Assembly (NCBI GenBank): GCA_047967505.1
Contig: CM106538.1
Origin: Dipteris shenzhenensis
Taxonomy: Eukaryota
Direction: 5' to 3' (one strand)
DNA length: 64,000 nucleotides
The position numbers and the translations under genes are program-made. Positions 2,835-56,095 of this stretch are shown piece after piece; the first letter of the stretch is position 1, and each line of letters begins with the position of its first letter. The notes under the pieces were generated by a model, which was not told the origin of the DNA, ran no database searches, and saw only the letters and a program-made list of their open reading frames with translations.

Positions 2835-4289
2835 GGTGGGAGAGGGGACCTGCATCATCTTTGGGGTCTTGAAAAGCTTTCCGGAGGCTTCCAGAGGAGA
2901 CCAAGTCTCAGTTGACAGGACATCTCAGAGGGAGTGCAGGGAGGATCTTGCAGATTGAGGTAGCCCTTCCAGAGGAGTGGGTAGACACATATGATATGCC
3001 ACTCACTTGCTCCACTTGGGCAGGTACTTTTTTGAGAGGCAGTGTTCCGCTTCAGGTTTTGGCCTTTTGAGATGCACAGGAGGACGCTTTGGTTTTTACT
3101 GTGCAGGATGGTGGCAGATTGCTGAAATCCACAGAGGACATCTTGCTTGAGTCTGCTTTTCAGCCTATCAGGGTCGTAGGTCTTTTGGTGTAGGGATCAG
3201 ATTCAGAGTGGTTCCTCGACCCAGACCCCCGGCTTCTCTCCACCGAGTCTTGGAGGCTTTGGCTTTACGGGGGAGTTCCCATTAGGTATTTGCAGTGGGA
3301 CCCTGGAGAGTGGGAGTGGATTGACGCAAGGCATCGAGAGAAGAGCATCCCCTTCTTTTGTTACACAGTCAGTAATGCCAAGAGATTTCAGCTCAGTGAT
3401 AGAGGTTGGAGGCCTTCCAAAGTTCCTCATTGGGAGACATTTGATATCACAACGAATCTGCAGAGGTGCTTCTGAAGGAGACTCTGGAAATCCCACAGGA
3501 ATAGAAAGATCACTCTTTTCTTTTGGCTTTCTATCCATGGTGGGATTGCAGTGAACCTTTGGAGATCCAGGTTCAGAGCCGACCCTACTTGCCCTCGTTG
3601 CCTCTCTGCTTCGGAGTCTATTCAGCATTGTTTATGGGACTGCAGACAGGCGAGGATGATTTGGATGGGGGTAGCCAGGATTTTCAGCCACTTTGCCCAC
3701 CCCCCATTCTTTATGACATGGGGCTCAGTGGCTTGGCTTTCTCTTACAGGGCCTCAGGTATTCTATGAGAGACTTGACTCCTCTCGGGCCATTTTGGTTT
3801 GACGTCATCAGATTGAGTCCTGTTCGTTCGATGTGGTACCACACCTTCCTTTTACAGATGTACATGTCTCGGTTGGATACTTCTTGGGAGATTATAGCGA
3901 GCATTGCATCCTGGCATATCTGGAGGGCCAGATGTACAGAGACTATGGAGGGTACTCGGGTTCATCCCTCGCACACTTGGGCTAGTATCTGGACAGATAC
4001 CGTACATACTTTGATGGCCATATGGATGAGGATACAGGGAGACTCCCTTGCAGCCTCAGCTAGGAGGGCTTCTTTCTTCAGGGAATCGAAGGACTCTCCT
4101 TTCTTCTCTGAGACTCTTACAGGGTTGAGGTGGCACTTTCAGCCTCAGCCTTGGTTGTTTTTCACCTCACTTTGAGGGGGTTTTATTTATCCTCATGATT
4201 TCATGATGTTGTATTTTCGCTCAGAGCTTGCTCTAGCGAGTTTCTTTCTTACTTAATAGAAGTCTCTTTTTTGAAAAAAAAAAAATAAT
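2835..4289 (+). mobile_element. 5'-truncated copy of the dominant L1/Tx1-type LINE with 14-bp TSD
   Basis: AATAAGTAGGTCAA at 2821-2834 and 4290-4303; poly(A) from 4274; zf-RVT CPRCLSASESIQHCLWDC and the family 3' tail. Confidence 0.93.
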
Positions 4290-4363
4290 AATAAGTAGGT
4301 CAACCTCTCGAGCCCTTCCAACGCCCTTGTCTCTTCTTGCCCATCTTGGTCACCGCCAATTGG

Positions 4364-5031: not shown

Positions 5032-7122
5032 AGAGTAGGGCTGGACACTAGTGGTAGCCTTTGTGACCTCATCCTTCTAGCTTATGGCCGAGGGTTAAAG
5101 CTTACGCGAGGGCGAGGATGTACTTTAGTATTGTGAGTCATTGTCTCCTGTGGTGTCTCTTCCATCACCCCTTTCCCTTTTTCTTGGTCACTACTAGGTC
5201 TTACCCCCATATCCTTCTCTTTGTTGAGTCTGTGGCTGGGGAAAAAGTGGATGGACCTGCTTGTGCCGCAGTCTCCCTGTGCTGTCCTAGGGTTGTCACC
5301 TCCGTTGCAAAGCTCACTGTTTTGGACTTGCAGGAAGGAATCTGAGGTGTGCTACCTTCATCCTCAGAACTAGATTGAAGACCTCTGGTAACACTCTTAA
5401 CCACCTCCTAGTACCTTAAAGGCATAGAGTGATCTCATCGAAAGATGAGGCACTTCTGGAGCTAGTGGTAGACCTTGATGACTCTGTGTCCTTCGAAATT
5501 GTTTCTGATCAACTATCAAGAAAAAGCAAGGGTGGTCTATTCCTCAGCATACTATGTACCTTGGAGGGAGGGGATGACTTTGGTGGGGATACACTTGTGG
5601 TACTGGTCAGTGATGAGGCCTCCGGTCCTGATTTTGAGTCGTCCTTACATTTGTCACCTTTTGTTTGTGACCTTGTCACCGCTCCCAATACTGTGCCAAT
5701 CAAGTGGGGGTTGTTGCCCTCCCCCGCCTTAGCCATATTGACTTGAGATGATGGTTCCACTCTTCCATTGGGACAATCTCTGGTGTAGTGGTCATTTGTG
5801 TTGCACTATGTACAAGAGGGTCCCTTGAATGGATGTGTACAATCATCTTGGCCATACTCTCCACATCTGTAGCACATGATGGGTCTTTGAAAGTTGGTAC
5901 CTCTGCCTGCACCTCCACGTCCACCTCGAAAACCACCCTGTCGACCACGTTGATAAGGAGGTCCATATCCACCTCCTAACATAGGTGGTTGGTACGGTGC
6001 ATAGTAAAGCTGATGATATAATATGGGGTCCCAACCGGATTGGGTGCAGGAGCTTGGAGGAAAGGTAGATTAGGAAGTAATGGAGGCAGAATGATAGGTA
6101 CGGGTGTCGGGCTAGAAGTTATCGGTGCGGCTGTGTTGACTGTAGCAACTAGCGGTTCCCCCGAAGAATACTCTGGAAGAAGCTTCCTTAAGTCTTTGAG
6201 GTACCTACACTCAGAGGCATCATGTCCATGGATATCACAAAATATACAAAATGAGGTAGAAATAGGTATCTTACGCTTAGAGGGACACTCCCAGTGACCA
6301 TGGCCAGAACCCTTGCATTCTGTGCACCAAAGACTACTTCTAATATGGGCCTCAAAGGACGACTGGCCATCCACCTTTGTATTCTTGAGACCTTCATTGA
6401 TTTCTTCCAACTCCTTCTTTAGTTGCTACCATGCGGACGAGCCCTCCTCTCTGGGGAGCTGGGTGGTCGAAGTTGATGATGAGGCAAAACTTAACTGTGA
6501 CCGTTCCATCTTGACTGCTTCCTTCAGGATTTCTTGGAGTGAAGCATGTTCAGGGATTTTGTCAACCAGCCTTATACAATGATAGGGGGTGATGCTTTCA
6601 AAAACCACCCCTTCATGACAACATCATTAGGTGATACATACATCTTTGCCGCCAAGACCCTCATCCTTGTGTACATCTTAGAGATGCTTTCCCCAAGCTT
6701 CATGGTGTCAATGGACAACTCCTGGACAATCGTATGTTCAAACTTCTCAAGTTTGAAAGTCCCTAAATATTCCTCCCTTAGAGCTGCGTTTGAAAATGGT
6801 TAGGGGAAAATTGACTATGCCATACAACAGCTGCATCCTCTAATGACGATAGAAAGATGCGAAGGAAGGCATGCTCGTTCTCCACACCTTTTTTTTTTTT
6901 TCAAAAAAGAGACTTCCATTAAGTAAGAAAGAAACTCGCTACAGCAAGCTCTGAGCGAAAATACAACATCATGAAATCATGAGGATAAATAAAACCCCCT
7001 CAAAGTGAGGTGGAAAACAACCAAGGCTGAGGCTGAAAGTGCCACCTCAACCCTGTAAGAGTCTCAGAGAAGAAAGGAGAGTCCTTCCATTCCCTGAAGA
7101 AAGAAGCCCTCCTAGCTGAGGC

Positions 7123-7579: not shown

Positions 7580-10500
7580 TTCCTTCCCTCTTCAAGCATC
7601 ATCATCCTCGATGATGAAATCTAGGAATACTCTCCGTAACTGGTATACGGATTCCCAGGTAGCTTTTGATAGAGGTAGACCATGCCATGCAACCAACACC
7701 GTGGGTATCTTCCGATTGCGCACTTGCATTGTTCCTCGGTCCAGGATTCCTGTTGGTTTGCGTCTTGCATTATCCTCTATCTCCTGAAACAAAACAACAC
7801 CTTCGATTAGTGAGTCACCTGTATGCAAAAATTTCTTTAAATGAGAAACATGAAACACTGGTGGGTGCACCTTACACCCCTGTGGTAATTCTAATTTATA
7901 GGCTACCTTGCCTATTCTTTTTAGAATTAACCATGGCCCACAATATCGAGGTGATAACTTAGTACACTCTCCTGCAGTCAAAGACTTAGAGTGCGAAGGA
8001 ACTCTGAGAAAAACTTTTTCCCCTTCCTTAAATTCTCTAGCGAATCGATTTTCATCCGCATACGCCTTGGCTCTATCCATAGCTTGGCGGATGTTAGCTC
8101 TCGCAAGTGCTAGCATCTCCCGCATCTGAACCACAAAGTTCGTGGCACTAGGCACTTTCTGAGGTATTCCAACTATAGTTGGATTCGTTGGTCTATAACC
8201 ATAGTTCAACTCAAACGGACTGAACCCTGTAGAGGAATGTTTTCTATCATTGTAGGCAAACTCTAACAATGGCAACCACTTGTCCCATGTATGTTGCCTC
8301 AATGACACATATGCTCTAAGCATATCCTCTAAAATTTGATTGATTGTTTCTGTCTGACCATCCGTTTCCGGATGATCCCCACTACTCATTTCTAACTCAG
8401 TCCTTAGTGTCTCAAATACCGCAGTCCACAAATGACCGGTAAATTTGACATCTCTGTCTGACACTATGGATTTGGGTAATCCATGCAGACGAAATGTATG
8501 TCTAATAAACAAATCCGCTACTTGCGGAGCACTAACAGATTCTCTAGTTGGAATGAAGTGAGCCATCTTGGTAAGATGATCAATCACCACAAGGATAGAA
8601 TCATATCCACCTTGTCGTAGGCCGTCCTACAATAAAGTCCATGGAAATGCTCTCCCACTTAGTGGTATCTCCAAAGGCTGTAAAAGTTCGGGTGGCTTCA
8701 CCCACTCTGCCTTACTTACCTGACACGAAAAACAACGTGTCACATATTCATGAATATGCTTTTTCATCTTTGGCCAAAAGAAATCTCGCTTCACGAGATC
8801 ATATGTCTCTCGACTCCTAGATGTCCCGTACATGGGCTATCATGGCATTGTTGAATGACTCTCTGCCTGAGATCATTTTGATTAGGTACTACTACCTTGC
8901 CATTTCTTTTCAGCATACCATCCCTTATGGCATATCTTGCATAAGTTTGGCCTTTTCTGGATGGCAGGTCATCCTTTTTCCCGGGTTTTAACATATGAGC
9001 CTTAGGCCATAGGCTCTGGACAAACTCGTCCACCTTTTGAGTTTCTCTAATCTTGGCCATTAGAGCACTCTCTAACACTGTGAAACTCATGTTATGCATA
9101 ATGTGTGACAACGCATCAGCAACTTTATTATCCTTCCCTCTTTGGTACCGGATCATCAAATTAAACTCCTGCATGAGTTCTGCCCATCTAGCTTGGCGGC
9201 CTCTTAAGTCAGGTTGTTTACAAAAATGTTTCAGAGTATCATGATCAACATCCACATAAAACTCTGATCCATACAAATAATGTCTCCATGTTTTCAAAGC
9301 ATGGACAACAACATACAGCTCTAATTCATGAGTTGGCCAATTTCGTTGAGAGGGAGAAAGCTTCTTGCTTTCAAAGGCTACTGGCCTTCCCTCTTGGAGG
9401 AGAATTGCTCCAACCGCAATGCCACTTGCATCGGTTTCAAGAAACAACGGTTTCTGGGGATCAACTATTTTTAACACCGGTCCTGAGACCACAGCTTGTT
9501 TTATGGTGTTAAAACTTTCTTGTTGATTCAGTCCCCATATAAAAGATACTTTATCTGAGGTCAGATCAGTCAATGGCGCTACTATTTTGGAATATCCTTT
9601 GATATGCCTTCGATAAAATTGGACAAATCCCAAGAATGATCGCAAAAAGCGGTCAAACTCTAAGGGATTGGCCAAGTCAGTATTGCAACCACTTTCTTTG
9701 GATCCATTTCTACCCCCTCTGGAGTAATTATGAATCCTAAATATTCAAGTCTAACCATACACAGTATAGTTTTCTTCTTATTTACATAAAGATTGGCTTT
9801 CCTCAAAGTACTGAACACTATTCTTAAGTGTTCATGATGCTCAGTAATACTTTTACTGAATACCAGAATATCGTCAATAAAATGTACTACAAACTTTCCA
9901 ATATAAGGACGTAGTAAATCATTCATAAGCATGACGAATGTAGCTGGAGCATTGGTAAGTCCAAAGGGCATTACCAAAAACTCATAATGACCAAATCTGC
10001 TTCTAAAAGCGATTTTATGCACATCCTCGGCTCTAATACGGATCTGACACTCGAGTTGCTGCTCCTCCCCGCTCCCTTGCTGCACCCTCTCCCTTAGCCC
10101 GTCCCTCCCTCTCTCCCTTGCCCTCAGCCCCTCCCTCTCCCTCAGTCGCTCCCTCCCTTCCCCTCCTCCCCTTCAGCCTGCCCCCTTCCTGCTCACTTTC
10201 TCTCCTCCCCCTCTCAGCCTGCTCCCCTGCCCCCTCCCCCTGCCTGCTCCCTCGCCCCCTCCCTACCCCTCCGCCCCCTCCCTGCCTACTCCCCCGCCGC
10301 CTCTCTGCCTCTCCGCCCCCTCCCTGCCTCTCAGCCCGCCCCCTGCTCCCCCGCCCCCTCCCTGCCTGCTGCTCCCCCGCCCCCTCCCTACCTCTCAGCC
10401 AGCCCCATGCTCCCCCACCCCCTCCCTGCCTGCTCCCCCGCCCCCTCCCTACCTCTCCACCCCCTCTCTGCCTCTCAGCCCCCCGTCCCCTCCTCTCCCT

Positions 10501-16552: not shown

Positions 16553-18040
16553 GGGGGTTTTTTATTTATCCTTATGATTTCATGATGTATTCCGCTTTGA
16601 GCTTGCTCTCGCGGGTTTTTTCTCTTACTTAATAGAAGTCTTTTTCTTGGGGAAAAAAAAAAAAAAACGGATCTGATGGTAGCCACACTTAAGATCTATC
16701 TCACTGAAAATTACGGCCCCATGTAATGCATCTAGCAAATCATCGATGCGAGCCATCGGATACCTATGCTTAGTAGTGATATTATTCAGTGCTCTGTAAT
16801 CTATACAGAGATGAAAAGTATCATCTTTCTTCTTTTTTAATATCACTGTGGCGAAGCAAAAGGTGAAAAACTGGGTTGAATCTGCCCCAGCTTGAGGTAT
16901 TCTTCCAGTTGTCTTCGCACCTCAGCTTCTTCTGTAAAGCTTAATCTATAGGGAGGTCTATTTACAAGTTCTGCCCCTGGGATAAGCTCAATTTTATGCT
17001 GAACATTCCGCTCTGGAGGTAACCCATAAGGTAACTCATCCCTAAAACAATCAGAGTACTTCTCCGATATCTCTTTAGCCAACTCGGCCATTTCCCCATC
17101 TTGGGTAGCCTTAGTGCTAGTCGATACATCATCAATCGACTCTACCGATGCTATACACAGACACAGAAACTCTTTCGGAGTCTTCCGAATTTCCATGGCT
17201 GAAATCAATGGTCCTCGAGGTAAATCCTTTTCACCTCGCAAAACATATTCTACCCCGTTCATCTTGAACTGGTAAATATGCTTTTTCCAATCAATGGCTG
17301 GATTTTTCCAAAAATGCCAAGCCATGCCTAGGGCTATATCTGCATGAGCAAGCCTGGTCAACTCAAAGTCCAACTTCTCAACATAGTCATGAATTCAAAG
17401 TTCCAACTGGGTAACCCTCTGGTCCCATACTTAACTGAACTTCTGTCCGCCATCCTGACGGTCTAAGCATAGTTAGATGGACTAGTTTTCAACTTGAGCC
17501 TCTTAATAAGCTTCCAGTTAATTACATTGTGTGTTGATGCTGAGTCAAACAACACAATCACATGATGATTGGCTACTTGCCCTTTCATTTTAATAGCATC
17601 CTTTCAAACCCCGTTGCTACGGGCTTTGAAAGGATGTTATCGGGTGCACCGCTTGCTAACTTAGTAACAGACACACTTAACAACACAGGTACTAACCTTT
17701 GAGAAGGTCCCGCCAATTGCATCTACATATGTTCCGCATTGGGACTCTCCTGCATTTCCGCGTCGCATTCAAATATTATCATATTGGCCATGCGATGGTC
17801 TTTGTTTAGTGGACAATCTTTCCACTGATGTCGCTGAAGGCAGTCGAAGCACAATCCTTCTTTTCTAGCTTTTTCTTTTTGCTCAGGGGTCAACGAGGAC
17901 TTTGACCAAGCCTGCCATTGGAGTTACTTTTCTTTTCACCCCAATGGTGGTACTTGTCTTTGCTTGTCCCTCAACCGGCTACTCATGCTGAGTCCGTGCC
18001 TGCACAAATCCACTAGATTTGCCTCTGGCATCCTCATAGT

Positions 18041-18700
18041 TCAGGGTACTGCAATAGATTCATCTAATGTAGTCAGATATTTAGCCTGAACTTCCATTTT
18101 AATCTTGTCGTTCAATCCATAGATATAGTCTTTCAACTGAACTGACACAGTGAGAGGGTTTTTTATTTTCATAACACATTCCCTGAACTTGTCAGTGTAC
18201 TCTGCCACTGACAAATTCCTCTGGCGAAGGTTTCTGTAAGCATCCCAAGCTCGGGACTCTTCATCAGGTGGAAGAAAGTGTTTCTTAAATTCAGCCTTAA
18301 ACCCTTCCCAGGTGGTAGGGGCAACCTGATCTTTCTGTTGCTTTATCCACCACCTATCCACTGCCTCAATAAATAGGTGAGTGGTCTCGCGGATTTTCTT
18401 TAGATCAGATCTGATTTCACAAATGGCGAAGGCTTCTTCCCACTTGTGTAACCAAACCTCGATCACATCAAAACTATGCTCGGTCATCCGACCAGCGTAC
18501 TTTTCCGGTCTATAGTTGGCAATATTAGGTACCTTGACCTTCGCACGTTCTGATGAGGTATACTGGGCTCTGGCTCTACTGGAGCTTTGCCCTTTTCATT
18601 TCTAGATGGTCTAGCCAACAAGGCTTGCACCATCTCTCTAATTTCATTTTGACCAGCGTTCACTTGAAGCTGCTAGTTCATGATCTGTTGTAAGGCATCT
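18041..18700 (-). pseudogene. Gypsy B gag
   Basis: TWEGFKAEFKKHFLP..LRQRNLSVAEYTDKF..YIYGL is a typical retrotransposon gag; it lies between PBS and PR. Confidence 0.85.
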
Positions 18701-30539: not shown

Positions 30540-31492
30540 TATGGGCTTCGTCTTGCAAGCTATTAGTTAGGGGACATTGGGGCTCTCTCTTCTGATTACG
30601 CAAGAGTAGGAGCTATAAGATACTGAGTTTGCAGATGACACATCAATCATAGTCAGGGCAGATCAGCAGAACTCACCACCACTGCCACATCCATTGATTG
30701 GTTTTGCCTAGCCTCAAGAGGACTTCTTAACGGGAATAAACCAAAAGGATTTTTGGCAAGTGCTGTGCAAGATCCTCTAGATTGGGTTGCTGAAAAACGT
30801 TCTTTTTTGGGTTCCTAGAGGCACTTCCACTAGTTATCTTTGCTTTCATTTAGTATTGATGTGTCTTTGGCTCAATAGTTTACACCTGTGTTGGAGAGTA
30901 TACGAAGGAAGCTAGCATATTGGAGCAATTCTAGACTTTGCACATCAAAGACCAAGGCATCCACATCCGTATCTTGCCGGAGACAGTCAATCTCTTGTTA
31001 TGAGGAGGAAGGGATCCTTCGAAGAGAATTCTTGAGACTGCCCCAACCTTTTAAGATGGAAGCCATAAGGGGAAAGTCAAGCATCCTGAAGTGTGTCGAC
31101 AAAAAGATCCATCGAGTGTTGTCCATCCAATCACCACCTGAGGAGGGGCACTCAAAGCCTGAGTAGTGTCACCCTTCTCAAATCTTGGCCAGTACTTGGA
31201 CAGATATGATACACACTCTGATGGCCATTCGGGCGACCATGCAAGGATCATCTCGAGCAGCCTCCTCCAGGAGAGTTACTTTTCTCAGAGATTGGAGAGA
31301 CTCTCCCTTCTTTGCTGAGACTTCTACAGGGTTGAGATGGCATTTTCAGCCTCAGCCTTGGTTTCTTTCTACCTCATTCCTCTGAGGTGTTTTTATTACA
31401 TGCTTAGCATGGTGTATTTCCGCACAGAGCTTGCCCTAGCGGGTTTCTTTCTTACTTAATAGAAGTCTCTTTTTTGAAAAAGAAAAAAAAAA
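30540..31492. mobile_element. LINE debris: old RT fragment (+, ~30540-30945), inverted piece (-, ~30985-31150), 3' end with poly(A) (+, ~31165-31492)
   Basis: TEFADDT and LESIRRKLAYWS; family 3' tail TTACTTAATAGAAGTCTCTTTTTTG-A(n). Confidence 0.75.
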
Positions 31493-33107
31493 GAGTAGAG
31501 TCAATATTGTTGTTCAATGTTAAAGTCTAGTCTTTCCTCTCTACAAAGAAGTCATAGGCATCCAAGCAATAAGTCTCCTTTCAACCAAACAGCCTTTCTT
31601 CACATGCTCAGAAGGACTCATCTTGAATCGTATTATTTTTCATACACATACGTAATTCTTCATTTTTACTTTTCTTCAAATCGTGGACACAAGGTGCCCC
31701 AATTTAGAAGACTCCTTGCTATATTTAGCTGCTTGCTAAACCTTTCTTACCCTTCCCATGTCTTCACTGATTCACTAACATTATTCTTCCCCTTAGGCAT
31801 GTATCTCTAGGTGCAATGTTAATGAACTAACCTCGAGGCCCCAAATCCTTCTAGTTGTCTCGGACCTCGATCATCAAAGAGACTCTTGGCAGCTAATCCT
31901 TGATCAATCTTATAACCGACCAAAACAATCAAAATGAGCCTCAGAGCTTCAAGGATGCTCAGCATAATCTGGCATGGCAGAAAGATATGGAAGCTGGGAT
32001 TAAATCCATTGAGAAGAATGCCACATGGGACTTGGGTTTTTTTTTTTTTTTTTAAATGAAAAGTACTTCATTAAGTATGAATAAAAATCGCAGAGCAAGC
32101 TCAAGTGCGGGAGTACATCATGTCAAGCATGAGAAAAAACAGCTCAGAATAAGCAAACAAAAATCCCGGGTGGTGGCTGAAAATGCCACCTCATCCCTGA
32201 AGGAGAGTCAGAGAAGAAAGGACAATCCTTCTAGACTCTGACCTAGCAGTAGCAGTCTGGAGGTTCCCTGCATGTTTGCCCAAATGGCCATCAAAGTGTG
32301 TATAGTATCTGCCCAGATATCTGCCCAAATACTAGCCATAGTCTGAGAAGGGTGAACTTGGGAGTCCTCCAAAGCCGTTCTACATCTAGCTCTCCAAATA
32401 TGCCATGCTGTGATACTAGCTAGAATCTCCCAAGATGTGTCTACAGAACCATGGGGAGCTCTGAATGGAGTAAACGGAACATCCTGGAGGGAGCATGACT
32501 CCACAAGATGCGCCCATTGGAAAAAATGTGGTTGGCACGAAATGGATTTATAAGGTGAAATACCATTTAGATGGCACAGTTGAGAAATACAAAGCCCGTT
32601 TGGTTGCCAAGGGGTATGCACAAGAGGAGGGAATAGATTATGAGGAGACTTTTGCTCCAGTGGCCAAGATGACCACCATTCGCTCTGTCATCTCTCTTGC
32701 TGTGTTTTATGGTTGGTCAGTGTACCAGATGGATGTCAAGACCGCTTTCCTCAATGGAGATCTTAAGGAGGAGGTCTATGTACATCAGCCCCAAGGTTTT
32801 GAGGTGAAGGGGCAAGAGCACAAGGTATGCAAGCTCAAGAAGGCTCTATATGGGCTGAAGCAAGCACCTTGTGTGTGGTATCAGAAGATACATCAGTTTT
32901 TTATGTCCCAGGGCTTCGTAGACACTCATACAGAGCCAAATCTGTGTTTTGCAGCAAAAATCAGAATTGGTCATGTTGGTACTATATGTGGATGACATCA
33001 TACTCATTGGCACTGATTTGCAGCAAATTACAGCAGTGCAGTCCGCTTTATGTCACAACTTTGACATGACAGATTTCGGCCTATTGCATTATTGTCTTGG
33101 CATTGAG
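31493..33107 (+). mobile_element. Ty1/Copia pol fragment (INT-RT linker and RT), interrupted by a LINE
   Basis: [68 protein letters not shown]. Confidence 0.93.
32037..32505 (-). mobile_element. 5'-truncated LINE inserted in Copia RT
   Basis: Poly(T) 32037-32053, family 3' UTR, WEILASITAWHIWRARC; no TSD visible. Confidence 0.88.
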
Positions 33108-36100
33108 TTTTTTTTTTTTTTTTGCAAAAAGTAACTTCTATTAAGTATTAAAGAAAAACCGTTAGAGCAAGCTCCATACGGGATACATCATGCAAGGCAC
33201 GAAAAGCTCAAGAGCCAAAAAGAAAGGATTGAGGCTGATAGTGCCATCTCAATCCGGTAGAAACCTCCAAGAAAAAGGGGGAACCCCTCCAAACTCGAAG
33301 ATAGTCCTTCTAGAAGAGGCTACCCGTGAAGGGCCCTGCATGCTAGCCCATATGGCTATCAAAGTGTGAACCGTGTCAGTCCAAATACCCGTGAACACCT
33401 GTGATGGGTGTATCTGGGTGCCATCCAAGGCCTCAGTACATCTGACTCTCCAAATGTGCCAAGAGGAAATGCTAGCCAAAATCTCCCAAGAGGTGTCCAC
33501 TGAAACATGAGAAGCTCTGAAGGAAGTAAGTGGTACATCTTGAAGAGAGCAGGGCTCTATCACCTGTCGGCGGACCGAGAGTGCCCAAGAAGAAGCCTCA
33601 CCCTAATAAAACACCTGGGCCCAGTAAGGGATAACCATGCAACCGAGCCCCAAGTCATGAAGAAAGGGGAAGTGTGAAAGATGCTGAGTATCCGAGCAAC
33701 CCCTTTCCAAACAATCCTCGCCTGACCACAGTCCCAAAGGCAATGTCACGCTGACTCCTTTGCAGAATGACATCGAGGACAAGTGGGATCAGCCCCAAAA
33801 CGTGATCTCCACGGGTTCACTGCAATCCCTCCATGAATAGAAAGCCAAAAGAAAAGAGTGATCTTTCTATTTCTGAGGGATTTCCAGAGCCTCCTCCAGA
33901 AATTTATACGCAAATCTGCAGTGATGAAGAAGCTTTCCCAATGGGGGGCTCTGGAGGAAATCCAACCCCTACTGTTCAGCTAAAATCTCCTGGCATTACC
34001 AACCTTGAAACGAAAGAAGGGAATCCCCCTCTCTCGGTGCCCATGATCTATCCACTCCCACTCTCCTGGGTCCCACTGCAAGCACCTGATAGGTGCACCT
34101 CCATATAACCACAACCTCCAGGATCCCAAGGCCAAGAGCAGAGGGTCGGGGTCTAAGTACCACTGCAAGCCCGCTCCATGGTCTACAAAACCAGTGATCC
34201 TGACAGGCTAAAAGGCAACCTCAAGAAGAATGCCATCCTTGGATGTAGAAAGTAAACCTCCATCCCCAACATCAAAGACCAGTGCGTCTTCCACGAGACC
34301 TCGGAGAGCGATCACCTGTAAAGGAACCGTCCTCGAAAAAGCCCCCATCCAAGTGGTGGAAGTAATAGGCAACTCAACTGTCCATTCCACCGGTATGGCT
34401 GCATCTATCTGCTGAATCCTACGTGCTACCCCTCTGAGGTGACTCACGGACTGTAGTCTCTAATCCTCAGGTAGCTTGATAAAAGCTTTCCAAGTGCGTG
34501 TAGGTGGGGCCTCTCTCCCATTTAGACCACTGCATGTAATGGGAAGTGCCCAATGGTCTGGCATGCTTGTCAAGAATACTATCATTCCAAATGATCGGCT
34601 GCCTATCAATCTCTTCGACGGTAGAAGGTGGAATCCTTCAAAGAGTGTTCCTGAAGCTCCCCCAAGCTTTCAAGATGGCAGTCATGAGAGGAGAGGCAGG
34701 AGATCTGAGAGGGGCAGAAGTGAAAATCCAGCGAGGGCTGTCCACCCAATCATCTCCCAAGGTTGGTGTGCAAGCCTGAATGCGTCCAAAAAAGAAATCC
34801 TTCCAAGGTTCCTTCCCAAGCACGAGTCCCCTCACCACCACCTTACAAAGCAATGCCCTGCACTGCAAGTTCGGGTCGATGACATTAAGGCCCCCTTCAC
34901 ATGTAGGGAGAATAATGGTCTCCCAGGCCACCCTTGCTGCAACATCTGTTGTGCCATCAAGTCCACTCCATAAAAAAAAACTGACTGGTCTGATGAGCTG
35001 AGTGATGCAATCCTAGACCGGCACCAGCAAGAACACACAAACCAGGAGGTGGCCAAGAGAACCTGGTTCACTACCACAACTCTATATGCAAGGTCGAGTT
35101 CGGCGGAGCTCCAAAAAAGGAGCTTTTTCCTTATACTTTCTAGTACTGGGGCAAACTCCTGTGCTGGAGAGATGTCCAATCCTACCTAGCATCCCAAATA
35201 CCTGATAGGAACACCCCTCTGAATCCAGGAAAAACCAATGTCAACTCCCCAGCCTGGAGTGTCCTCATCACTGATCCAAAAGCCAAAGGATTTATGCCAG
35301 TTAATGTGTGCCCTTGCAGCTGAGCAAAAAATATCCAAAGCTGTCCAGAAAGAATCAAGTGACTGCGAAGAGGCCTCAATAAAAATAGCAGTGTCATCAG
35401 CCAACTCACAATCAAGAAGCTCCTGCTCCTGTCTCAAGGGCAATCTCAGCCCAAAAAGCTCAGCCTAAGATCTAAGGAAGATACTCATAGCTTCTGCCAC
35501 AAAAAGAAAGAGGAAGGGGGCTAAAGGGCATCCCTGATGAACTGATCTCGAAATCTGAAACCTGTCACCCCTTACCCCTCCAATCAAAACCTGGCTGTGG
35601 GCTGATCTGTAAAGGGAGGCCACCCCTCTGATCCAAGCATCTGAAAATCCAAACCGTAGAAGAGTGCCCTCAAGAAAACCCTAATCTACTCTGTCATAGG
35701 CTTTCTCAAAGTCCAGGAGTAGAACTGCTAGCCTCTGCCCACTCTGTGGCTTCCCAAAAGGAAAAGATATTATAAAAAATGCTCCTACCATGCACAAAGC
35801 CTATCCGAGTATCATGAATGAGGTTTGGAAGAAGGGCCTGTACTCAGATGCTGATCGCCTTGGCAAGGATTTTGTAAAGAGTGCCCAAAAGAGTGATGGG
35901 TCTCCAATGGGATACAAAATGTGTTGCCACCTTTCGGGACAAGGTGAAAAAGTCCCTCGGTCAGTGAGTCAGGCATCTCACCCGAGTCCCAAATGCCCTG
36001 CAGGGCTGAAGTAATATGATCACCTATCATATCTCAAAAGGCTATAAAAAAAGGAGTAAGACCATCAGAACCAGGGCATTTGCCCTTATTCTGTGTTGGT

Positions 36101-42891: not shown

Positions 42892-44027
42892 ATTTAAGAA
42901 ACCTCCTTCATTGAGCAAGACATGATTTAAGGTGCTGGTCAGCAATTTTTTGAGTACTCATCCAGATTGAGCTATATTTCCTTTCCTTCTCACCTTCGGT
43001 TCTTTTGTCCGGTGAACTGTCCATGCTGGACAGGTACTACACTATTTGTAGCCCTCCCTCCCCAGAGGAAATAGCATGGGCTGAAGGAGATCTTGATCTC
43101 CTAACAATCCCCTTCTTTCTTGGGCTACCAGAAACCAAAAGAGCATGAATGGTGGTTCTTTGAGAAATGGGATAAAGGGAAAGGAGCCCAAGAGAGTCCT
43201 CAAGAAAGGCCAAGTGCATAATGGGCCCATATTCAGCCTGTGAGGGATCAAGCCTCACTGTCAAAGAGAGCTGCTGGCTGGAATAACCAGCCACCCCTTA
43301 GGCAACCAACGGCGGAAGCATCAGGGGTGTCGAGGATTAGAGCCAGTCGGGGGGGACTAGTGATGAGACCAAGGAGAGCAGAATGAAGGCCAATGAGAGA
43401 GGAAAAGGGTACGGAAGGATGGAAAGGAGACCGGGGGAGGTGAAATAATTTGGAAAGAGTAGGGGAGCAGAGACAGCTGGTGCAGAGAAAGAGCTCGCTT
43501 TAGGGGTACTTGGGACAGACTGGCTAGAAGCAAAGGGGGAGCAAATGCAGGAGAGCTGGGAGCAGTTCAGAAAGGAGAAAAGGACAGAAGATGGAAGAGG
43601 CTGAGATAGGAGGAGGGATGAGGGCCAGAGCTGGTAAGGATCGGTTTGATGGGAGGCAGGGCCACTAGCAGGCCATGGGAATGGGAGATCAGCTTTCCCC
43701 ACATTGGTGACACTTGCAACTATCATAGCCTCATTAACTTTGCATTATAGGGGCATGCATGATTGACTTCATCGGCCCTTCAAGTCGGTATATGAGCCAG
43801 GCGACTCCTATGGGTATGACTGGGGCTGGTCAATTGTGAGCCAAGACTGTCCAACTTGGTGCCAGTGGCAGAGGTCCAAGTCAGCATCTCAAGCTATACG
43901 GATGGTTGAAATTGACTGCTTTTCAAGGCAGGTCATAACTTTTTGGTGCTCCCTTTGGAGATAGATTTGTGATTTTGAGCTGTAATAAAAATTTCCCCCA
44001 AAACAAGGATTAAGAAACCCTCTAACT

Positions 44028-44054
44028 TAATAGAAGTCTCTTTTTTGGAAAAAA
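44028..44054 (+). mobile_element. 27-nt LINE 3'-end insertion with 16-bp TSD
   Basis: AAGAAACCCTCTAACT (44012-44027 and 44055-44070) flanks TAATAGAAGTCTCTTTTTTGGAAAAAA. Confidence 0.9.
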
Positions 44055-44217
44055 AAGAAACCCTCTAACTCTAACAAAAACCAGTACAAAAAACATTTCT
44101 GACCTTTAAAGGAACTCTACTTCTGTTTCCTTAAAGGAGAGAGTTGCTATTGAAAATGAGGAGCCTCAAGGAGGCATTGTTAAAACACTACAAGTAAAAG
44201 GATAAAATTCAAGGTAC

Positions 44218-44532
44218 CTGGTAATACCACAAATTGAAAGGGAGAATTTGAAATAAACTCGCTTTTATATCCAACAGTCAGAGAATATTTTCCAGATATG
44301 GTCGGAACAAAAGAAATTGTTTGATATCCAGTTGCCTGTTCCAACCCTTTGACAATCTTTGGAGACATCTCCTTGTCATAAAACCTAATTGTCACTACGA
44401 AATCAACATATGTGAGCCTTGTCACAAGGTTTCCATAAGCGTCCATTAGTGTGATGTTCAAAATTACTGCTGTCCCTGCTTTGAATAAGCTCTCCATCAG
44501 TGCACCTTTGCAAGCAGGAATGGAAATAGATC
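44218..44532 (-). CDS. GEX2: Internal exon (315 nt, phase 1-1) encoding a filamin/Ig-like repeat of a probable GAMETE EXPRESSED 2-like protein
   Basis: ACAG|GA acceptor and CAG|GTACC donor; open frame GSISIPACKGALMESLFKAGTAVILNITLMDAYGN..TISFVPTISGKYSLTVG..ISNSPFQFVVLP. D-x-[YF]-GN and SPF-x-x-V are filamin-repeat hallmarks. GEX2 identity is from recognition, not a search. Confidence 0.75.
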
Positions 44533-44678
44533 CTGTTCTCCCAACAGATCAACTGTCAGCGGTACTGATTAACACTCCAAACATGCTAAGAATACTTGTG
44601 CTATAGACGTGGAAAAAAAGGAAAACTATAGCTGCCGATTCCTACATGATATATTTATTGGAAGTTATAGATGCGCAC

Positions 44679-45005
44679 CAACAATGACCTCAAATGAGAA
44701 AGGTGACCCAGGGACATGAAAGGTCTCATTTCCAATAAAGAAGTAAAACCGTCCAGCCTTTTTTGTCATAAACTCACAAATAGTGTACCCGGAGTCTCCT
44801 TCACTATGCATTTGTATTTGTGGAAATAGATCCTTGTTACCAGCTTCATCAAAGATTTTAAAACCAAAAGCAAGTAAAGGTGCTGCCAATAGAGGAGCAT
44901 TAGATTTGTCACATAGCCTTATTCTGAACTTTGCTTGAGTCCCAGCAATGAATATATTAATGTTATCAGCCCAATTTCCTCGGCAGAGAGGTAGATATAA
45001 TGCAC
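44679..45005 (-). CDS. GEX2: Internal exon (327 nt, phase 1-1) encoding the preceding filamin/Ig-like repeat of the same gene
   Basis: TTTCAG|GT acceptor and G|GTGCG donor; open frame GALYLPLCRGNWADNINIFIAGTQAKFRIRLCDK..KAGRFYFFIGNETFHVPGSPFSFEVIV; splices in frame over a 146-nt intron. Confidence 0.75.
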
Positions 45006-45265
45006 CTGAAATTGTTTTGGGATTTATTACAGGAACATCAAGAATTGTGTGACAACTTTCTGTAAATCAAAGTAAACTTTAAACTACTCTACAATCAAGA
45101 GACATAAGGTTTGGATTAGATTTGAGTGTTAGAAAGAGATGATTAGAGTAATGGTGTACCAAAGTGAAAACATATAGAATAGACTAGGAAGGAAAAAGAA
45201 TTATCCACGGTCAAGAAATGGAGAGAGAATTATCCTATTCATATGAATAGCTGTTATGACAGATT

Positions 45266-45863
45266 ATTATTTTTTCAATGAAAAGACTTCTATTAAGTAT
45301 GAAAGCTACCTCAAGAGCAAAGCTCATGGAAAATGCATCATGAAACGAATAAGATACAAAAAAATTTCGGGCCAAATAACCTACTCATCAGAGAGATCTA
45401 AAAAAGCACCAAAGTTGAGGCTGAAAGTGCCACCTCAAACTTGTGGTGGACTTCGAGAAAAACGGGGAGCCACTCAACTCCCTAAGGAAAACAGCCTGGG
45501 AATAACCCTATATGGTCACCCAAATAGGCATCACATTGTGTATAATATCTATCCAAATACTAGCCAACATGTGTGAAGGGTGGATCTGGGAGCCATCCAA
45601 AGCCTTTGTATATTTAGACCTCCAAACATGCCATGCTGAAATGCTCGCCACAATCTCCTGCCTGTCATAAAATACCTAAGGTCCCAAAAGAGAGATCCGA
45701 GCCATCAAACCCTAGGTAATAAAGGGAGAAGGAACAAAAGTGCTAATAAATCTAGCAATATTCTTTGAGATAAACCTCACTTGTCTGCAATCTCATAATC
45801 AATGCTGAATGGACTCCTCAACAAAAAGGCAATGATGGCAAGTAGGGGCTGCCCTGAACCTAG
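45266..45863 (-). mobile_element. Old LINE 3' fragment
   Basis: Short T tail, GACTTCTATTAAGTA tail, degenerate zf-RVT. Confidence 0.8.
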
Positions 45864-48344: not shown

Positions 48345-49692
48345 GGATTGGAGGGCGTAAGATTGGTCTTCTCAATCTCTACGCTCCCAACAACAGAGGG
48401 GAGCGGATCTCCTTTTGGAAGGAGTTACTCTCTTGGGCCCCCATTGCAAATTCTTGGATCATTGGTGGCGATTTCAACATGGTTGAGTTGCCATTAGACA
48501 AAAAGGGAGGCAGACAGGGTGGAATTCATTCTTTGGAAAGGGTAGCATGGGATGCCTTTCTCTTTTAGTACAGTGGCAGGGACACTTGGTTAGATGATGC
48601 CTTTCATGTTGTGCCACAATCACTCCTGTACTCTTGGTCGAACAGGAGAATACACATGCCCATCCATGCACCTATTGACAGATTTTATGTAGATGATTGG
48701 GCACTTGACAGAGGAGGATCTGTATGCATTTCTACTGGGGTTTCCACCTCAGATAATTTTCCAGTGGGGGTGTTGCAGATTCTGGAGCCTCATTGGAGAG
48801 GACGCTCCGCTAGTGTTAGGATTCCGGATGCTTTTTATGCGGAGGAGAGCCTCACGGATGATATTTTACAAATTTGGGTTTCTCACATACAGGGTGGAGC
48901 TGTCCGCCCATCGCAGGTAGCTGCAGCCTTATCTGGAATTAGTGACTATTATCATACAGTCGCTAATGAGATCCAAGTTCGGAGCTGACCCGTCTTGCCG
49001 TCGTTTCCTTTTTGCTTTGGAGACAATACAGCATTGCCTTTGGGATTGCAGATAGGCAAGAATCATATGGAAAGGGATTGCAAGACTTTTCAGCACTTTT
49101 GTTCGCCTACCTTTCTATATGACCTGGGGATCAGTGGCTTGGATCACTCTTTCAGGGCCCCAGGTCTTCTTTGAGAGACTTGACTCCTCTTGGGCTCTTC
49201 ACATCCGATGACACCTTGTGGAGTCGTGCTCTCTAGAGGATGTTCCGGCCTCTATCTTCAGGGCTGCTCATTCATCGGTTGACTCTCCATGGGAGGTCTT
49301 AGCTAGCATTGCAGCATGGCACATTTGGAGAGCCAGGTGCACTGAGGCTTTGGAGGGTTCTCAGGTTCACCCTTCTCAAATCTTGGCCAGTACTTGGACA
49401 AATACGGTACACACTTTGATGGCCGTTTGGGCGACCATGCAGGGTACATCTCGAGCAGCCTCCTCTAGGAGCGTTACTTTTCTCAGAGATTGGAGAGACT
49501 CTCCCTTCTTTGCTGAGATTTCTACAGGGTTGAGTTGGCATTTTCAGCCTCAGCCTTGGTTGCTTTCTACCTCATTCCTCTGAGGTGTTTTTATTACATG
49601 CCTAGCATGTTGTATCATCGCACAGAGCTTGCTCTTGCGAGTTTCTTTCTTACTTAATAGAAGTCTCTTTTTTGCGAAAAAAAAAATAAAAA
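48345..49692 (+). mobile_element. LINE copy: EN segment fused (at ~48965) to zf-RVT/3' end, with poly(A)
   Basis: NLYAP..GGDFN..IDRFY jumps to RSKFGADPSCRR; about 3 kb including RT is absent. Confidence 0.85.
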
Positions 49693-49808: not shown

Positions 49809-50448
49809 TATTTTATTTTTTTCCCAAAAAGATTACTTCACTAAGTATGAATGAAAACTGCAAGAGCAAGTTCTAATGCGGGAGTACATCATGCAATGCA
49901 TGAGAAAAAAAAACCAGCTCAAAAAGAGCTAACAAAAAACCAAGGTGGAGGCTGAAAATGCCACCTCAACCGTGAAGGAGACTCCGAGAAGAAAGGAGAT
50001 CCTCTCCAAACTCTGAAAAAGGTATCTCTCCTGGCTGTAGCATCTCTAGAGGATCCTTGCATGCTCTCCCAAATGGCCATCAATGTGTGTATAGTAGCAG
50101 TCCATATATTGGCCATAGATTGGGAAGGGTGGACCTGGGAACCCTCCATCGCCTCCGTACATCTAGCTCTCCATATATGCCAAGCTCCAATGCTAGCCAG
50201 AATCTCCCAAGATGTTCCTATTGAGGCATAAGCAGCTCTGAAAGGAGTGAAGAGAACATCCTGGAGAGAACATGACTCCACAAAGTGTCATCATATAATG
50301 AAGGCTGAGTATGAGTCATGTCCCTCGAAAAACACCTGAGGGCTAGTAAGAGATAACCATGCCACTAATCCCCAAGTCATGAAGAAGGGTGCTCTATGAA
50401 ATATGCTAAAAATCCTAGCAACACCCTTCAAGATCGTCCTCGCCTATC
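49809..50448 (-). mobile_element. 5'-truncated LINE
   Basis: T tail, family 3' UTR, ORF 49919-50281. Confidence 0.88.
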
Positions 50449-51384: not shown

Positions 51385-51739
51385 AAATTCTGTCCAATTT
51401 TTTGCACCAAGTTTAAAGCAAGGTTTCCCATAATGGGGAGCGAGAAGACACTGTCTATTTTGGCCAAAAAAAACCAAAATTTAAAATCCTCTACCTTTCA
51501 ATTGCACTCTGGGGATCACTCTTCATAAACCCATAAAGCATGTGCAAGCAAGCATATATTAAAAAATACCCCTATTCTTGCAATTTACATTTTGTCATGT
51601 GAATGCTTGAACCCATGTATGTGTTTACATTTTTTTTTTTTTTCCATGAAAAAGACTTCTATTAAGTAAGAACAAAAACCCGCGAGAGCAAGCTCAAAGC
51701 GGAATACATCATGAAATCATGAGGATAATAAAAAACCCC

Positions 51740-54700
51740 TCAGAGTGAGGTGGAAAGAAACCAAGGCTGAGGCTGAAAGTGCCATCTCAACCCTGTAGTA
51801 GATTCAGAGAAGAAAGGAGAATCCTTCCATTCCCTGAAGAAAGAAGCCCTCCTAGCTGAGGCTGCACGGGAGTCCCCCTGCATACCCGTCCATACGGCCA
51901 TCAGAGTGTGTACGATGTCTGTCCAGATACTAGCCAATGTGTGCGAGGGATGAATCTGAGTACCCTCCATAGCCTCTGTGCATCTGGCTCTCCAGATATG
52001 CCAGGCTGCTATGCTCGCTATAATCTCCCAAGAAGTATCCACAGAGGCATGTACAGCTGTAAAAGGACGGTGTGGAACCACATCCAACAAGCAGAACTCA
52101 ACCCGATGACGTCGAACCGAAATGGCCCGAGAGGAGTCAAGTCCCTCATAGAAAACCTGAGGTCCTGTAAGAGAAAGCCAAGCCACCGAGCCCCAAGTCA
52201 TAAAAAGTGGGGAATGGGCAAAGTGACTGAAGATCCTGGCTATCCCCATCCAAATCAATCTCGCCTATCTGCAATCCCATAAGCAATGCTGAATAGACTC
52301 CGAAGCAAAAAGGCAACGAGGGCAAGTAGGGTCGGCTCCGAATCTGGACCTCCAAAGGTTCACTGCAATCCCTCCATGAATAGAAAGCCAAAAGAAGATA
52401 GTGATCTTTCTATTCCTGTGGGATTTCCAGAGCCTCCTCCAGAAGTACCTCTGCTGATCCGCAGTAATACCAAAAGTCTCCCAATGAGGAACTCTAGAGG
52501 GTCTCCAGCCTCTACTACTGAGCTGAAATCTCTTGGCATTACTGACCGTGTAACGAAAGAAGGGGATGGTCTTCTCTCGATGCCCCGCATCAATCCACTC
52601 CCACTCTCCGGGGTCCCACTGTAAATACCTGATGGGAACTCCTCCATAGAGCCAGAGTCTCCAAGACCCGATGGAGAGTAACTGGGGGTCAGGGTCTAAG
52701 AACCACTCTGAATCTGATCCCTGCATCAAAAGGCCTACGACCCTGATAGGCTGAAAAGCAGACTCAAGCAAGATATCATCTGTAGATCTGAGCAATCTAC
52801 CACCATCCTGGACACTAAAAACCAAAGCATCCTCCTGTGCATCTCGGAAGGCTAAGACCTGAAGTGGAACCCCGCCTCTCGAGAAAGTACCTGCCCAAGT
52901 GGAGGAAGTGAGAGGCATATCATCTGTGTCTATCCAAGTCTCTGGAAGGGCTGTCTCAATCTGCAAGATCCTCCCTGCACTCCCTCTGAGATGTCCTGTC
53001 AACCTTGACTTGGTTTCCTCTGGAAGCCTACGGAAAGCTTTCCAAGATCCCAAAGAAGAAGCAGGTCCCCTCTCCCACCTGGCCCACTGCATGTAGAGTG
53101 AGGCACCCAGTGGTCTGCCACGATCATCTAAAATACTATCGTTCCACATGATGGGCTGCCTATCAATCTCTTCCCGGGAGGAAGGAGGAATCCTCCGAAG
53201 AGAGCTTCTGAAACTAGCCCAAGCTTTCAGAATGGCAACCATGAGAGGGGATGAAGGTGATCTGAGGTGTGCTGTGGTGAAGATCCATCTAACACTGCTC
53301 ATCCAGTCTCCTCCTGAGGAAGGTGTGCACCTCTGTATGCTGCTGATAAGAAAGTCCTTCCACGGTTCCTATCCTCGCATAAGTCCTCGCACCACTATCT
53401 TGCAAAGTAAAGCTCTGCACTGTAAATCTGGATCAATAATATTGAGACCCCCATCCTGTGTAGGGAGAATGAGGGTCTCCCAAGCCACTCTGGCTAAGGC
53501 ATCTGCTGTGCCATCAAGCCCACTCCAGAGAAAGTTCCTGATCGGTCTTCTAAGCTGAATGATGCAGTCCCTAGAACGGCACCAACATGAACAAATAAAC
53601 CAGGCAGTGGCGAGGAGGACCTGGTTGACCACCACAACTCTAGAGGCAAGATCCAGCTTGGCTGAGCTCCAAAAGAGAAGCTTCCTTCTGATGCTCTCCA
53701 ACACGGGAGCAAACTGCTGCATGGTAGAAATACCCAAGCCGACTTGGCAGCCCAAATACCTGATAGGCACACCCCTCTGAACCCAAGTGAACCCTATGTC
53801 AAGCCCCCAAACTGGAGTGTCCTCATCATTGATCCAAAAGCCATTGGATTTATGCCAATTTATCTGCGCCCCTGCCACCAAGCAAAATAAATCGAATGCT
53901 GTCCTGAAAGAAGTCAGTGTCTGTGGAGAGGCATCCAAATAAATCGCTGTGTCATCAGCCAACTCACTGTCAAGCAGCTCCTCCTCTCTTCTGATGGGAA
54001 GTCTCAGCCCAAAGATGTCAGCTTGAGATCTAACATAGATGCTCATAGCTTCGGCCACGAATAAAAAAAGGAAAGGAGCAAGGGGGCATCCCTGACGGAC
54101 TGATCTCAAAATCTGAAATCTCTCACCCCTTACCCCACCAATAAGTACCTGGCTATGGGCTGATCTGTACAAAGAGGAAACACCTCTGATCCAAACATCA
54201 GTGAATCCAAAGCGTAGAAGGGTGCCCTCCAAAAAACTCCAATCTACTCTGTCATAAGCTTTTTCAAAATCCAACAGTAGAATGGCAAGATTCTGGCCAC
54301 TCTGCATGGCCCACTCTGAAGCTTCCCAGAAAGAAAAAATGTTATCAAAAATACTTCTGCCATGCACAAATCCCGTCTGAGTGTCATGAATAAGATCAGG
54401 GAGAAGTGGCTGCAATCGGAGGCTGATACCCTTGGCGAGAATCTTGTAACAAGTCCCCAGAAGTGTGATAGGCCTCCACTGGGACAATAAATTTCTGCTA
54501 CCTCCTTTTGGGATAAGGTGGATGAGGCCCTCTGTAAGCGACTCAGGCATCTCGCCAGAGTCCCAAATGGCCTGCATGGCTGAAGTAATATAGTCTCCAA
54601 TCATATCCCAAAATGCAATGAAAAAATACGGGGTGAGGCCATCTAAACCTGGGCACTTGCCCTTGTGAAGGGCTGAAAGTGCAGTCCTAAACTCTGTGTT

Positions 54701-56085: not shown

Positions 56086-56095
56086 CAACAGGGAG

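Follow-up and report, generated by a model that had tools for sequence, protein, structure and literature searches.

By what feature of its RNA might a plant L1-type reverse transcriptase (RT) choose the template that it copies? The question is raised by a long interspersed element (LINE) near the start of a 64,000-nt stretch of Dipteris shenzhenensis DNA (contig CM106538.1 of assembly GCA_047967505.1; hereafter the window), whose 3' untranslated region (UTR) encodes a bulged hairpin capped by a CUUG loop. Comparison with related tails in the window leads us to lean toward an RNA hairpin that is under selection. The best single explanation for it, put forward tentatively, is a cis signal by which the protein of the second open reading frame (ORF2) would recognize its template.

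The element is a plant-type L1-clade LINE with an apurinic (APE) endonuclease, an RT and a zf-RVT domain. The stretch 4176-4289 is the entire 3' UTR and A-tail of a 5'-truncated copy, referred to here as the focal copy. Given the position of the ORF2 stop (4173-4175), the UTR is only about 100 nt long (4176-4273), so what is said of the hairpin covers almost all of it. The parts of the focal copy are:

2835-4289, plus strand: the focal copy, a 5'-truncated LINE of about 1.45 kb (BLAST match to the longest copy, flank word, sequence)
2821-2834 and 4290-4303: 14-bp target-site duplication AATAAGTAGGTCAA of the focal copy (shared flank word)
4173-4175, plus strand: ORF2 stop codon TGA (ORF list and C-terminal translation; same stop in copy 16626)
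4193-4206, plus strand: hairpin 1, TCATG-ATTT-CATGA (fold, alignment)
4206-4216, plus strand: linker AUGUUGUAUUU with UGUA/UUGUAU, the most conserved part of the UTR (mean identity 0.91 between lineages)
4216-4240, plus strand: hairpin 2, including the U-G pair 4216-4240; local free energy -10.6 kcal/mol
4217-4221 and 4235-4239, plus strand: lower stem of hairpin 2, TCGCT/AGCGA (sequence)
4222, plus strand: bulged C of hairpin 2 (sequence)
4223-4226 and 4231-4234, plus strand: upper stem of hairpin 2, AGAG/CTCT (sequence)
4227-4230, plus strand: loop of hairpin 2, CTTG (CUUG in RNA; sequence)
4250-4263, plus strand: near-invariant tail block UACUUAAUAGAAGU (TACTTAATAGAAGT; sequence, motif count)
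4264-4273, plus strand: U-tract CUCUUUUUUG, resembling a cleavage element (sequence)
4274-4289, plus strand: A-rich tail (sequence)

Read along the transcript, the UTR thus consists of a CAUG/CAUG hairpin, a UGUA linker, the bulged G(CUUG)C hairpin, the ACUUAAUAGAAGU block, a U-tract and poly(A).

BLAST with seven tails and a covariance-model scan recovered ten tails with hairpin 2 in the window, two more than were listed in an earlier reading of this DNA made without database searches (the sequence-only reading). That reading had described a bulged GAG-CTTG-CTC hairpin kept in the LINE 3' UTR across subfamilies, and the alignment bears it out: the hairpin lies at the same place in 10/10 tails, at constant spacing to the tail block, and the five stems already located (4217-4239, 49618-49640, 16592-16614, 31420-31442 and, on the minus strand, 33159-33181) all match the alignment. 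In the nine copies other than the focal one, hairpin 2 takes the following forms, where pair numbers are columns of the ten-copy alignment A2:

6936-6958, minus strand: copy 6912, focal subfamily, 98% identical; a private C-to-G change breaks one upper pair
16592-16614, plus strand: copy 16626; CCGC/GCGG lower stem, UUU/UC internal loop, GAG-CUUG-CUC
51680-51702, minus strand: copy 51655; weak form as in copy 16626
31420-31442, plus strand: copy 31453; outer pair C-G, with A.A and A.C mismatches
49618-49640, plus strand: copy 49651; outer pair U-A, A-U at pair 34-49, all paired
33159-33181, minus strand: copy 33134; CCGU/ACGG, that is C-G to U-A at pair 33-50, and G-U at pair 37-48
32088-32110, minus strand: copy 32065, newly found; outer C.A mismatch and a 1-nt deletion
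49858-49881, minus strand: copy 49826, newly found; broken by two G-to-A changes
45309-45331, minus strand: copy 45286, the most diverged; loop CUUUG, register uncertain

Copy 6912 is an insertion independent of the focal copy, with other flanks and another truncation point. The tail of copy 51655 belongs to the longest copy of the window, which extends from about 51643 to at least 57600 and has interrupted ORFs. At no more than one mismatch, GAGCTTGCTC is found 13 times (6.47 expected; 1 of 100 shuffles reaches 13), and 9 of the 13 occurrences lie in LINE tails. A CUUG loop closed by G-C belongs to a stable class of tetraloops. The proposed G(CUUG)C tetraloop holds in eight of the ten copies and fails in copy 49826, where the closing pair is A.C, and in copy 45286, which has CTTTG; the stability of the CUUG class is the subject on which PMC10401711, to judge by its title, bears.

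The case for a maintained stem comes from paired changes. RNAalifold, a check suggested by the sequence-only reading and run here on the ten window tails, returns hairpin 2 without pair 34-49 (eight pairs) as the only consensus structure. Over nine specified pairs, 83.1% of 89 cells can pair, compared with 35-51% when the partners are slid by 1-3 columns, and two-sided changes are seen at 3/9 pairs (6 cells) versus at most one pair in any slid control. Shuffles match the observed pairing in 2/500 trials and the covariation score in 7/500. Because shuffles ignore relatedness, we built a tree-aware null, with a tree made from the flanks and each paired column simulated independently at its own parsimony rate. 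For all ten copies, the probability of at least three double-changed pairs under this null is 0.024-0.052 and that of at least six cells is 0.008-0.014; when the poorly alignable copy 45286 is dropped, the values for nine copies are 0.003 and 0.001-0.003, respectively. The earlier claim of covariation therefore keeps some support once phylogeny is considered, in that paired changes exceed the tree-aware null (P about 0.003-0.05), and this support is fragile and weakens under high transition bias.

The individual changes differ in kind. At the outer pair 30-53, C-G became U-A in two independent events on the tree, one in the focal subfamily and one in copy 49651; copy 31453, a 93-94%-identical sister of copy 49651, retains C-G. 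The same replacement occurred once at pair 33-50, in copy 33134, and pair 34-49 shows an A-U/U-A flip that requires a transversion on both sides. These three are the pairs for which the lower stem can be said to change in pairs, as the sequence-only reading had put it, with the reservation that pair 34-49 is unpaired in 4/9 scorable copies. The U-A pairs of the focal subfamily are common to two independent insertions and hence passed through an active master element.

Could such a pattern arise with no structural function at all? On this account a short GC-rich near-palindrome has been kept by limited divergence or primary-sequence constraint, and the paired changes are chance combined with methylation-driven C-to-T on both arms. 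We consider it unlikely, as one of the two strongest competitors, and a number of results count in its favor and against a selected fold. Folding energies are ordinary: the whole UTR folds no more stably than shuffles (z of -0.33 to -1.71 in nine copies and +0.82 in one), an equally stable local hairpin turns up in 1-22% of shuffled UTRs (below 5% for only 1/6 copies tested), and the RNAalifold covariation term is +0.28, which is no net bonus. The null probabilities are only 0.003-0.05 for a structure picked after the data had been viewed; with a transition bias of 8 and all ten copies the double-change probability is 0.052, and percent pairing is non-significant in several tree-aware settings (P = 0.15-0.47). 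The sample comprises ten copies from about five lineages, each decayed to some degree, and pair 34-49 is open in the four copies already mentioned. The subfamily that includes the longest and least broken copy has the weakest stem (4 bp, a 3x2 internal loop, 3 bp; -8.4 kcal/mol), so that an internal loop interrupts the hairpin precisely there. At pair 30-53, both sides are cytosines in CCG/CGG beside CpG, and the changes are transitions.

In plants, the CCG/CGG context is prone to methylation and liable to C-to-T change. Paired transitions at pair 30-53 are less surprising for that reason. A mutation-prone stretch would also fit the sister tails 31393-31478 and 49591-49676 (93-94% identical), in which 6/26 columns differ in the hairpin region and 4/~58 outside it; this suggests more rapid change in the GC-rich stem than in the AT-rich sequence around it. 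A chance palindrome does not, however, account well for the double transversion at pair 34-49 or for the change at pair 33-50, which lies outside CG/CHG context. Nor does it readily explain why the U-A pairs of the focal subfamily survived retrotransposition in two independent insertions, or why controls with slid partners pair so much less and show at most one double change. It is also at odds with the conservation of the UTR relative to third codon positions.

That conservation was measured in the reading frame of copy 16626. This frame holds securely over about 670 nt ahead of the stop, and three comparisons are frame-secure. In these, the identity between lineages in the UTR comes to 0.74, 0.65 and 0.67, as against 0.58, 0.48 and 0.54 at third codon positions and 0.75-0.85 at first and second ones. 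A fourth comparison, with copy 33134, crosses frameshifts, and there the contrast is weaker (0.63 vs 0.67). The excess of UTR over third-position conservation is modest; since the UTR evolves more slowly than third positions, some purifying selection on it in the replicating lineages is indicated. Fixed position, paired changes beyond the tree-aware null and a slowly evolving UTR together make a selected RNA structure plausible. Within the terminal 300 nt, the best-conserved 20 nt (identity 0.88) belong to the last codons of ORF2, GLRW-H/Y-FQPQPW (4122-4160). A possible UGAGG/CCUCA hairpin within this ORF2 end (about 4125-4146) was rejected: the changes at its inner pair are uncompensated, and the sequence there codes for protein.

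If there is a functional fold, it might instead be a second hairpin that overlaps hairpin 2, of the form GAGCUUGC-(Y)CU(N)-GCGRGUUU, or a switch between the two mutually exclusive hairpins. In the focal copy it would be:

4224-4243, plus strand: alternative hairpin GAGCUUGC-UCUA-GCGAGUUU, 8 bp of which four are G-U/U-G, -8.2 kcal/mol; excludes hairpin 2

This fold lies within the whole-UTR minimum free energy (MFE) structure of 4/10 copies and pairs in 71/80 cells, with 8/8 pairs in six copies of the two largest lineages, which makes it as compatible with the tails as hairpin 2 and limits the case for the latter. The pair of G-to-A changes that breaks hairpin 2 in copy 49826 converts G-U/U-G to A-U/U-A here, and the loop has UCU, the conserved loop motif of a monocot L1 hairpin (PMC3472496). 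We nevertheless rate it improbable. It shows no two-sided change, contains 3-4 wobble pairs, is locally weaker than hairpin 2 in 6/10 copies, and has 2/8 pairs broken in copy 33134, where hairpin 2 has a compensated pair. Above all, it leaves the covariation of the 5'-arm columns 30, 33 and 34 unexplained: these three columns lie outside it, and the support is thus specific to hairpin 2. A long-range pairing of GAUUUCAU with AUAGAAGUC was also tried and set aside; it appears in the MFE structure of two copies, and its 5' partner is absent in other lineages.

The remainder of the UTR is conserved in a different way. The small CATG hairpin that the sequence-only reading placed ahead of hairpin 2 is present and conserved, and 39/40 of its core CAUG/CAUG cells pair (counted from the alignment rows). 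No two-sided change occurs in hairpin 1 among the ten copies, and the one-sided changes comprise three that are wobble-compatible and two that break a pair. Since the reverse complement of CAUG is again CAUG, any two conserved copies of the word will pair of their own accord. Segment identities are 0.91 for the CAUGAUGUA linker, 0.81 for the tail block and 0.68 for hairpin 2. At no more than two mismatches, the 14-nt tail block is found nine times in the window (0.39 expected; 0/100 shuffles reach nine). A weak third hairpin spans 4244-4262 and also occurs in copies 32065 and 49826, pairing UUUCU with the tail-block word AGAAG; in the one lineage whose block has lost an A, UUCAU pairs with AUGAA, and copy 45286 does not fit.

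A LINE must carry a poly(A) signal within its transcript. Plant terminators, in the accessible part of PMC10082929, have a U-rich far-upstream element with UUUGUA at least 30 nt upstream, an A-rich near-upstream element at 13-30 nt and a U-rich cleavage element. In the focal copy, UGUA lies about 60 nt ahead of the A-tail, and AAUAGA (4255-4260) lies 14-19 nt ahead of the poly(A) start, so that UGUA, AAUAGA and the U-tract occupy the positions of the three plant elements; the comparison is purely positional. Order and spacing agree with this layout as far as the source describes it, and the blocks here are far more conserved than usual plant poly(A) signals (PMC10082929, in part). Because their position fits, the near-invariant block and the U-tract, which the sequence-only reading had correctly seen before poly(A), are most likely the LINE's own polyadenylation signal (near-upstream and cleavage elements) and lie outside the recognition structure. 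The linker at 4206-4216 is a possible far-upstream element. The junction between U-tract and A-tail varies by 1-4 bases among copies (G, GG, GGG, GGGG, GCG, GC; at 4273-4274, 16649-16652, 31476-31478, 49674-49676, 33122-33124 and 51643-51645), perhaps because cleavage is imprecise or because transcription runs on into the source locus.

The whole 3' UTR might then be a module for 3'-end formation or stability, in which the hairpin aids processing, termination or stability and recognition by the RT is relaxed, requiring only poly(A) as in mammalian L1. The best-kept segments are indeed primary-sequence blocks, with the stem lower, and their placement matches the terminator layout given in the available portion of PMC10082929. 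A variable junction is what imprecise cleavage would produce, and the view in PMC3472496 is that relaxed recognition prevails among plant L1 lineages. We regard this possibility as unlikely, on a par with the chance palindrome, for it gives no reason why 5'-arm columns of the hairpin change together with their partners, and hairpins do not figure among the required plant poly(A) elements in the text of PMC10082929 that was consulted. It is also compatible with template recognition by hairpin 2, a reading in which polyadenylation is already the role given to the tail block and the U-tract.

A hairpin close to poly(A) also recalls the ENE (element for nuclear expression), in which U-rich strands clamp poly(A) in a triple helix and guard against deadenylation, as in the Arabidopsis element Evade. 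U-rich runs are present on both flanks of hairpin 2, the U-tract abuts poly(A), and ENE motifs are known in plant transposon RNAs, according to the accessible text of PMC12501189. By the same source, as far as available, an ENE must have an internal loop made of two U-rich strands opposite each other, with a G-C-closed stem on either side. In the LINE tails that loop consists of one C in the focal subfamily or of UUU/UC in another, the flanking U-runs have no conserved enclosing lower stem, and the facing U-rich loops that define an ENE are absent. The ENE reading is accordingly disfavored, and we think it very improbable. Evade (Copia93) is alike in having a structured 3' UTR element near poly(A) in a plant retrotransposon, one that raises mobility; it differs in that its ENE sits in a long terminal repeat element and needs paired U-rich loops with G-C flanks, which this LINE lacks (PMC12501189, in part). 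Rfam gave no match at gathering scores over the whole window, and a lax scan of 4100-4300 produced nothing better than E = 0.8.

Template recognition, the reading that we prefer, can be put as follows. In vivo, the sense transcript would form a 9-10-bp hairpin maintained by selection in replicating lineages, in which a lower stem YCGC(N)/(N)GCGR and an upper stem (A)GAG/CUC(U) are separated by a bulge or internal loop that varies, and a G-C-closed CUUG caps the whole. The ORF2 protein would pick its own RNA via this hairpin and position it for target-primed reverse transcription, which would be stringent-type recognition. Priming would still be by the poly(A) tail, at A/T-rich nick sites. Such a signal, if genuine, predicts short interspersed elements (SINEs) with the hairpin tail in the host genome. 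The idea in the sequence-only reading that SINEs could parasitize the element finds no counterpart in the 64-kb window: apart from the ten LINE tails, the covariance-model scan detects a single truncated LINE, the tail is shared by no SINE, and ARAGORN finds no tRNA-like sequence. The absence of a SINE partner from the window counts against the recognition reading. One tail-only match, at 44024, might have been taken for a SINE; that interpretation was rejected, since the match is 27 nt of a heavily truncated LINE, inserted between the copies of a 16-bp duplication:

44028-44054, plus strand: 5'-truncated LINE insertion consisting of the last 20 nt and an A-run, 27 nt (BLAST, flank duplication)
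44012-44027 and 44055-44070: perfect 16-bp target-site duplication AAGAAACCCTCTAACT of the 27-nt insertion

A-runs follow 11/11 tails, and a crude boundary search recovered target-site duplications for 2/11 insertions. Both of these duplications, of 14 and 16 bp, start with A-rich words. The 27-nt insertion illustrates that reverse transcription in this LINE family can yield very short products.

The literature already has a plant L1 of monocots with a stringent-type 3' stem-loop that shows compensatory changes, and the case described here would add a different host lineage and architecture. For monocots, Ohshima (2012) reported an L1 lineage whose 3' hairpin is conserved, changes its stem in compensatory fashion and has partners among SINEs; the same work describes a Chlamydomonas L1/SINE pair and proposes that green-plant L1s were ancestrally stringent (PMC3472496). 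The monocot 1a L1 (LINE1-1_ZM, with maize ZmSINE2/ZmSINE3 and sorghum SINEs; PMC3472496) and the LINE here are both plant L1-clade elements that end in poly(A), both have a hairpin with a conserved loop in a conserved 3' end, the stem varies by compensatory change in the former and apparently so in the latter, and both are read as stringent-type plus poly(A). There is no sequence similarity between the maize tail, as given in the available part of PMC3472496, and the tail here. The same partial source shows the maize hairpin as a GC-rich stem with a UCU-containing pyrimidine loop, followed by a CGAG block that directly abuts poly(A), whereas the hairpin here has a CUUG loop and ends 34 nt ahead of poly(A), separated from it by a block resembling a poly(A) signal and by a U-tract. 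SINE partners are known for the maize L1 and none was seen here in the window, the host is a non-seed green plant and not a monocot, and the conservation contrast is weaker (tail identity 0.64-0.83 vs third positions 0.48-0.63 here; divergence 0.144 vs 0.570 in PMC3472496).

More distant systems offer partial parallels. The 3' ends of the fish elements UnaL2 and ZfL2 are short tandem repeats and not poly(A). In these L2-clade LINEs (eel UnaL2, zebrafish ZfL2), the ORF2 protein recognizes a 3' stem-loop, a short hairpin like the handle proposed here, and in both cases a conserved loop sits above a variable stem, although the clades differ (accessible part of PMC4176376). Function there rests on retrotransposition assays (PMC4176376, in part; Kajikawa and Okada, 2002, as cited in PMC3472496), whereas the function proposed here is read from sequence. 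The 3' stem-loop proposed for human L1/Alu is likewise computational, conserved in position, just upstream of poly(A) and in the L1 clade, as described in the available text of PMC5135761; it is mammalian, belongs to an element of relaxed type by assay, and is unrelated in sequence and architecture to this LINE. Among the papers listed in a library thin in subscription journals, none links a CUUG loop to a LINE and none deals with the LINE tail of a fern or other non-seed plant.

A fuller proposal, which we hold as doubtful, is that of a non-seed-plant L1 that retains a two-part template signal: a CUUG-capped bulged hairpin read by the ORF2 protein plus poly(A) priming. The hairpin would lie between the poly(A)-signal blocks of the LINE, and a UTR of about 100 nt would thereby have two tasks, the formation of the 3' end and the choice of template. 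Such an element would be a present-day case, found beyond monocots and green algae, of the 'ancestrally stringent' plant L1 put forward by Ohshima. Should the hairpin truly act as a recognition signal, it would place a third, phylogenetically separate plant lineage beside the two cases behind the ancestrally stringent green-plant L1 idea, and it would offer a compact RNA-protein pair of about 25 nt for how an L1-type RT chooses its template. As no more than part of a module for the poly(A) signal, or as a palindrome due to chance, it would belong to the ordinary anatomy of transposons.

Copies were also sought outside the window. A pattern scan of metagenomes gave four loci, and the three examined (L001-L003) are unrelated chance matches. 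Tail-pattern scans of genome contigs and viral contigs returned 0 matches, and a protein-guided locus search with the ORF2 C-terminus found no relative in either set. The LINE family is partly present, as short contigs, in four sequencing runs (three under one organism label, one an algae metagenome). Among the run pieces listed, none spans the hairpin with both flanks, and these pieces thus add nothing on covariation; no RNA run is listed with the family.

The L1 label given by the sequence-only reading agrees with the domain set, which matches plant L1 (Exo_endo_phos, RVT_1, zf-RVT). In the longest copy (about 51643-57600, minus strand) these three domains sit on consecutive ORF pieces. Pfam places Exo_endo_phos (E = 1.7e-5) and RVT_1 (E = 1.1e-25) on adjacent pieces, and zf-RVT (PF13966, E = 6.3e-7, exceeding its cut-off) in the C-terminal part of ORF2. 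The Exo_endo_phos/RVT_1 pair recurs in two further copies, and one other copy has a zf-CCHC piece upstream of the APE endonuclease. No copy within the window has an uninterrupted ORF2. The closest named relatives of the RT piece, by nearest-neighbor identity and not by a tree with reference clades, are from the fern Adiantum (53%), then Riccia and Chara, all green-plant proteins; the best unnamed matches reach 49-63%, and green-plant RT proteins overall 30-63% identity.

More than 30 segments of the window match the longest copy by BLAST, and the LINE family makes up a large share of the 64 kb. Its fragments belong to several subfamilies and are nested, in both orientations. Other transposon remnants in the window are Ty3 pieces (about 7595-10172 and 18044-18595, both minus strand) and a copia piece (32474-32992).

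A GEX2 N-terminal Ig-like domain is encoded on two ORF pieces within 44183-45066 (minus strand; E = 1.7e-16 and 3.7e-20), which are probably exons of a gamete-expressed gene. A comparison of the GEX2-like exon with longer proteins gave no match. The 27-nt LINE insertion lies about 110 nt from one of these pieces (44183-44548, minus strand), and the LINE tail of copy 45286 is found immediately past them, perhaps in an intron.

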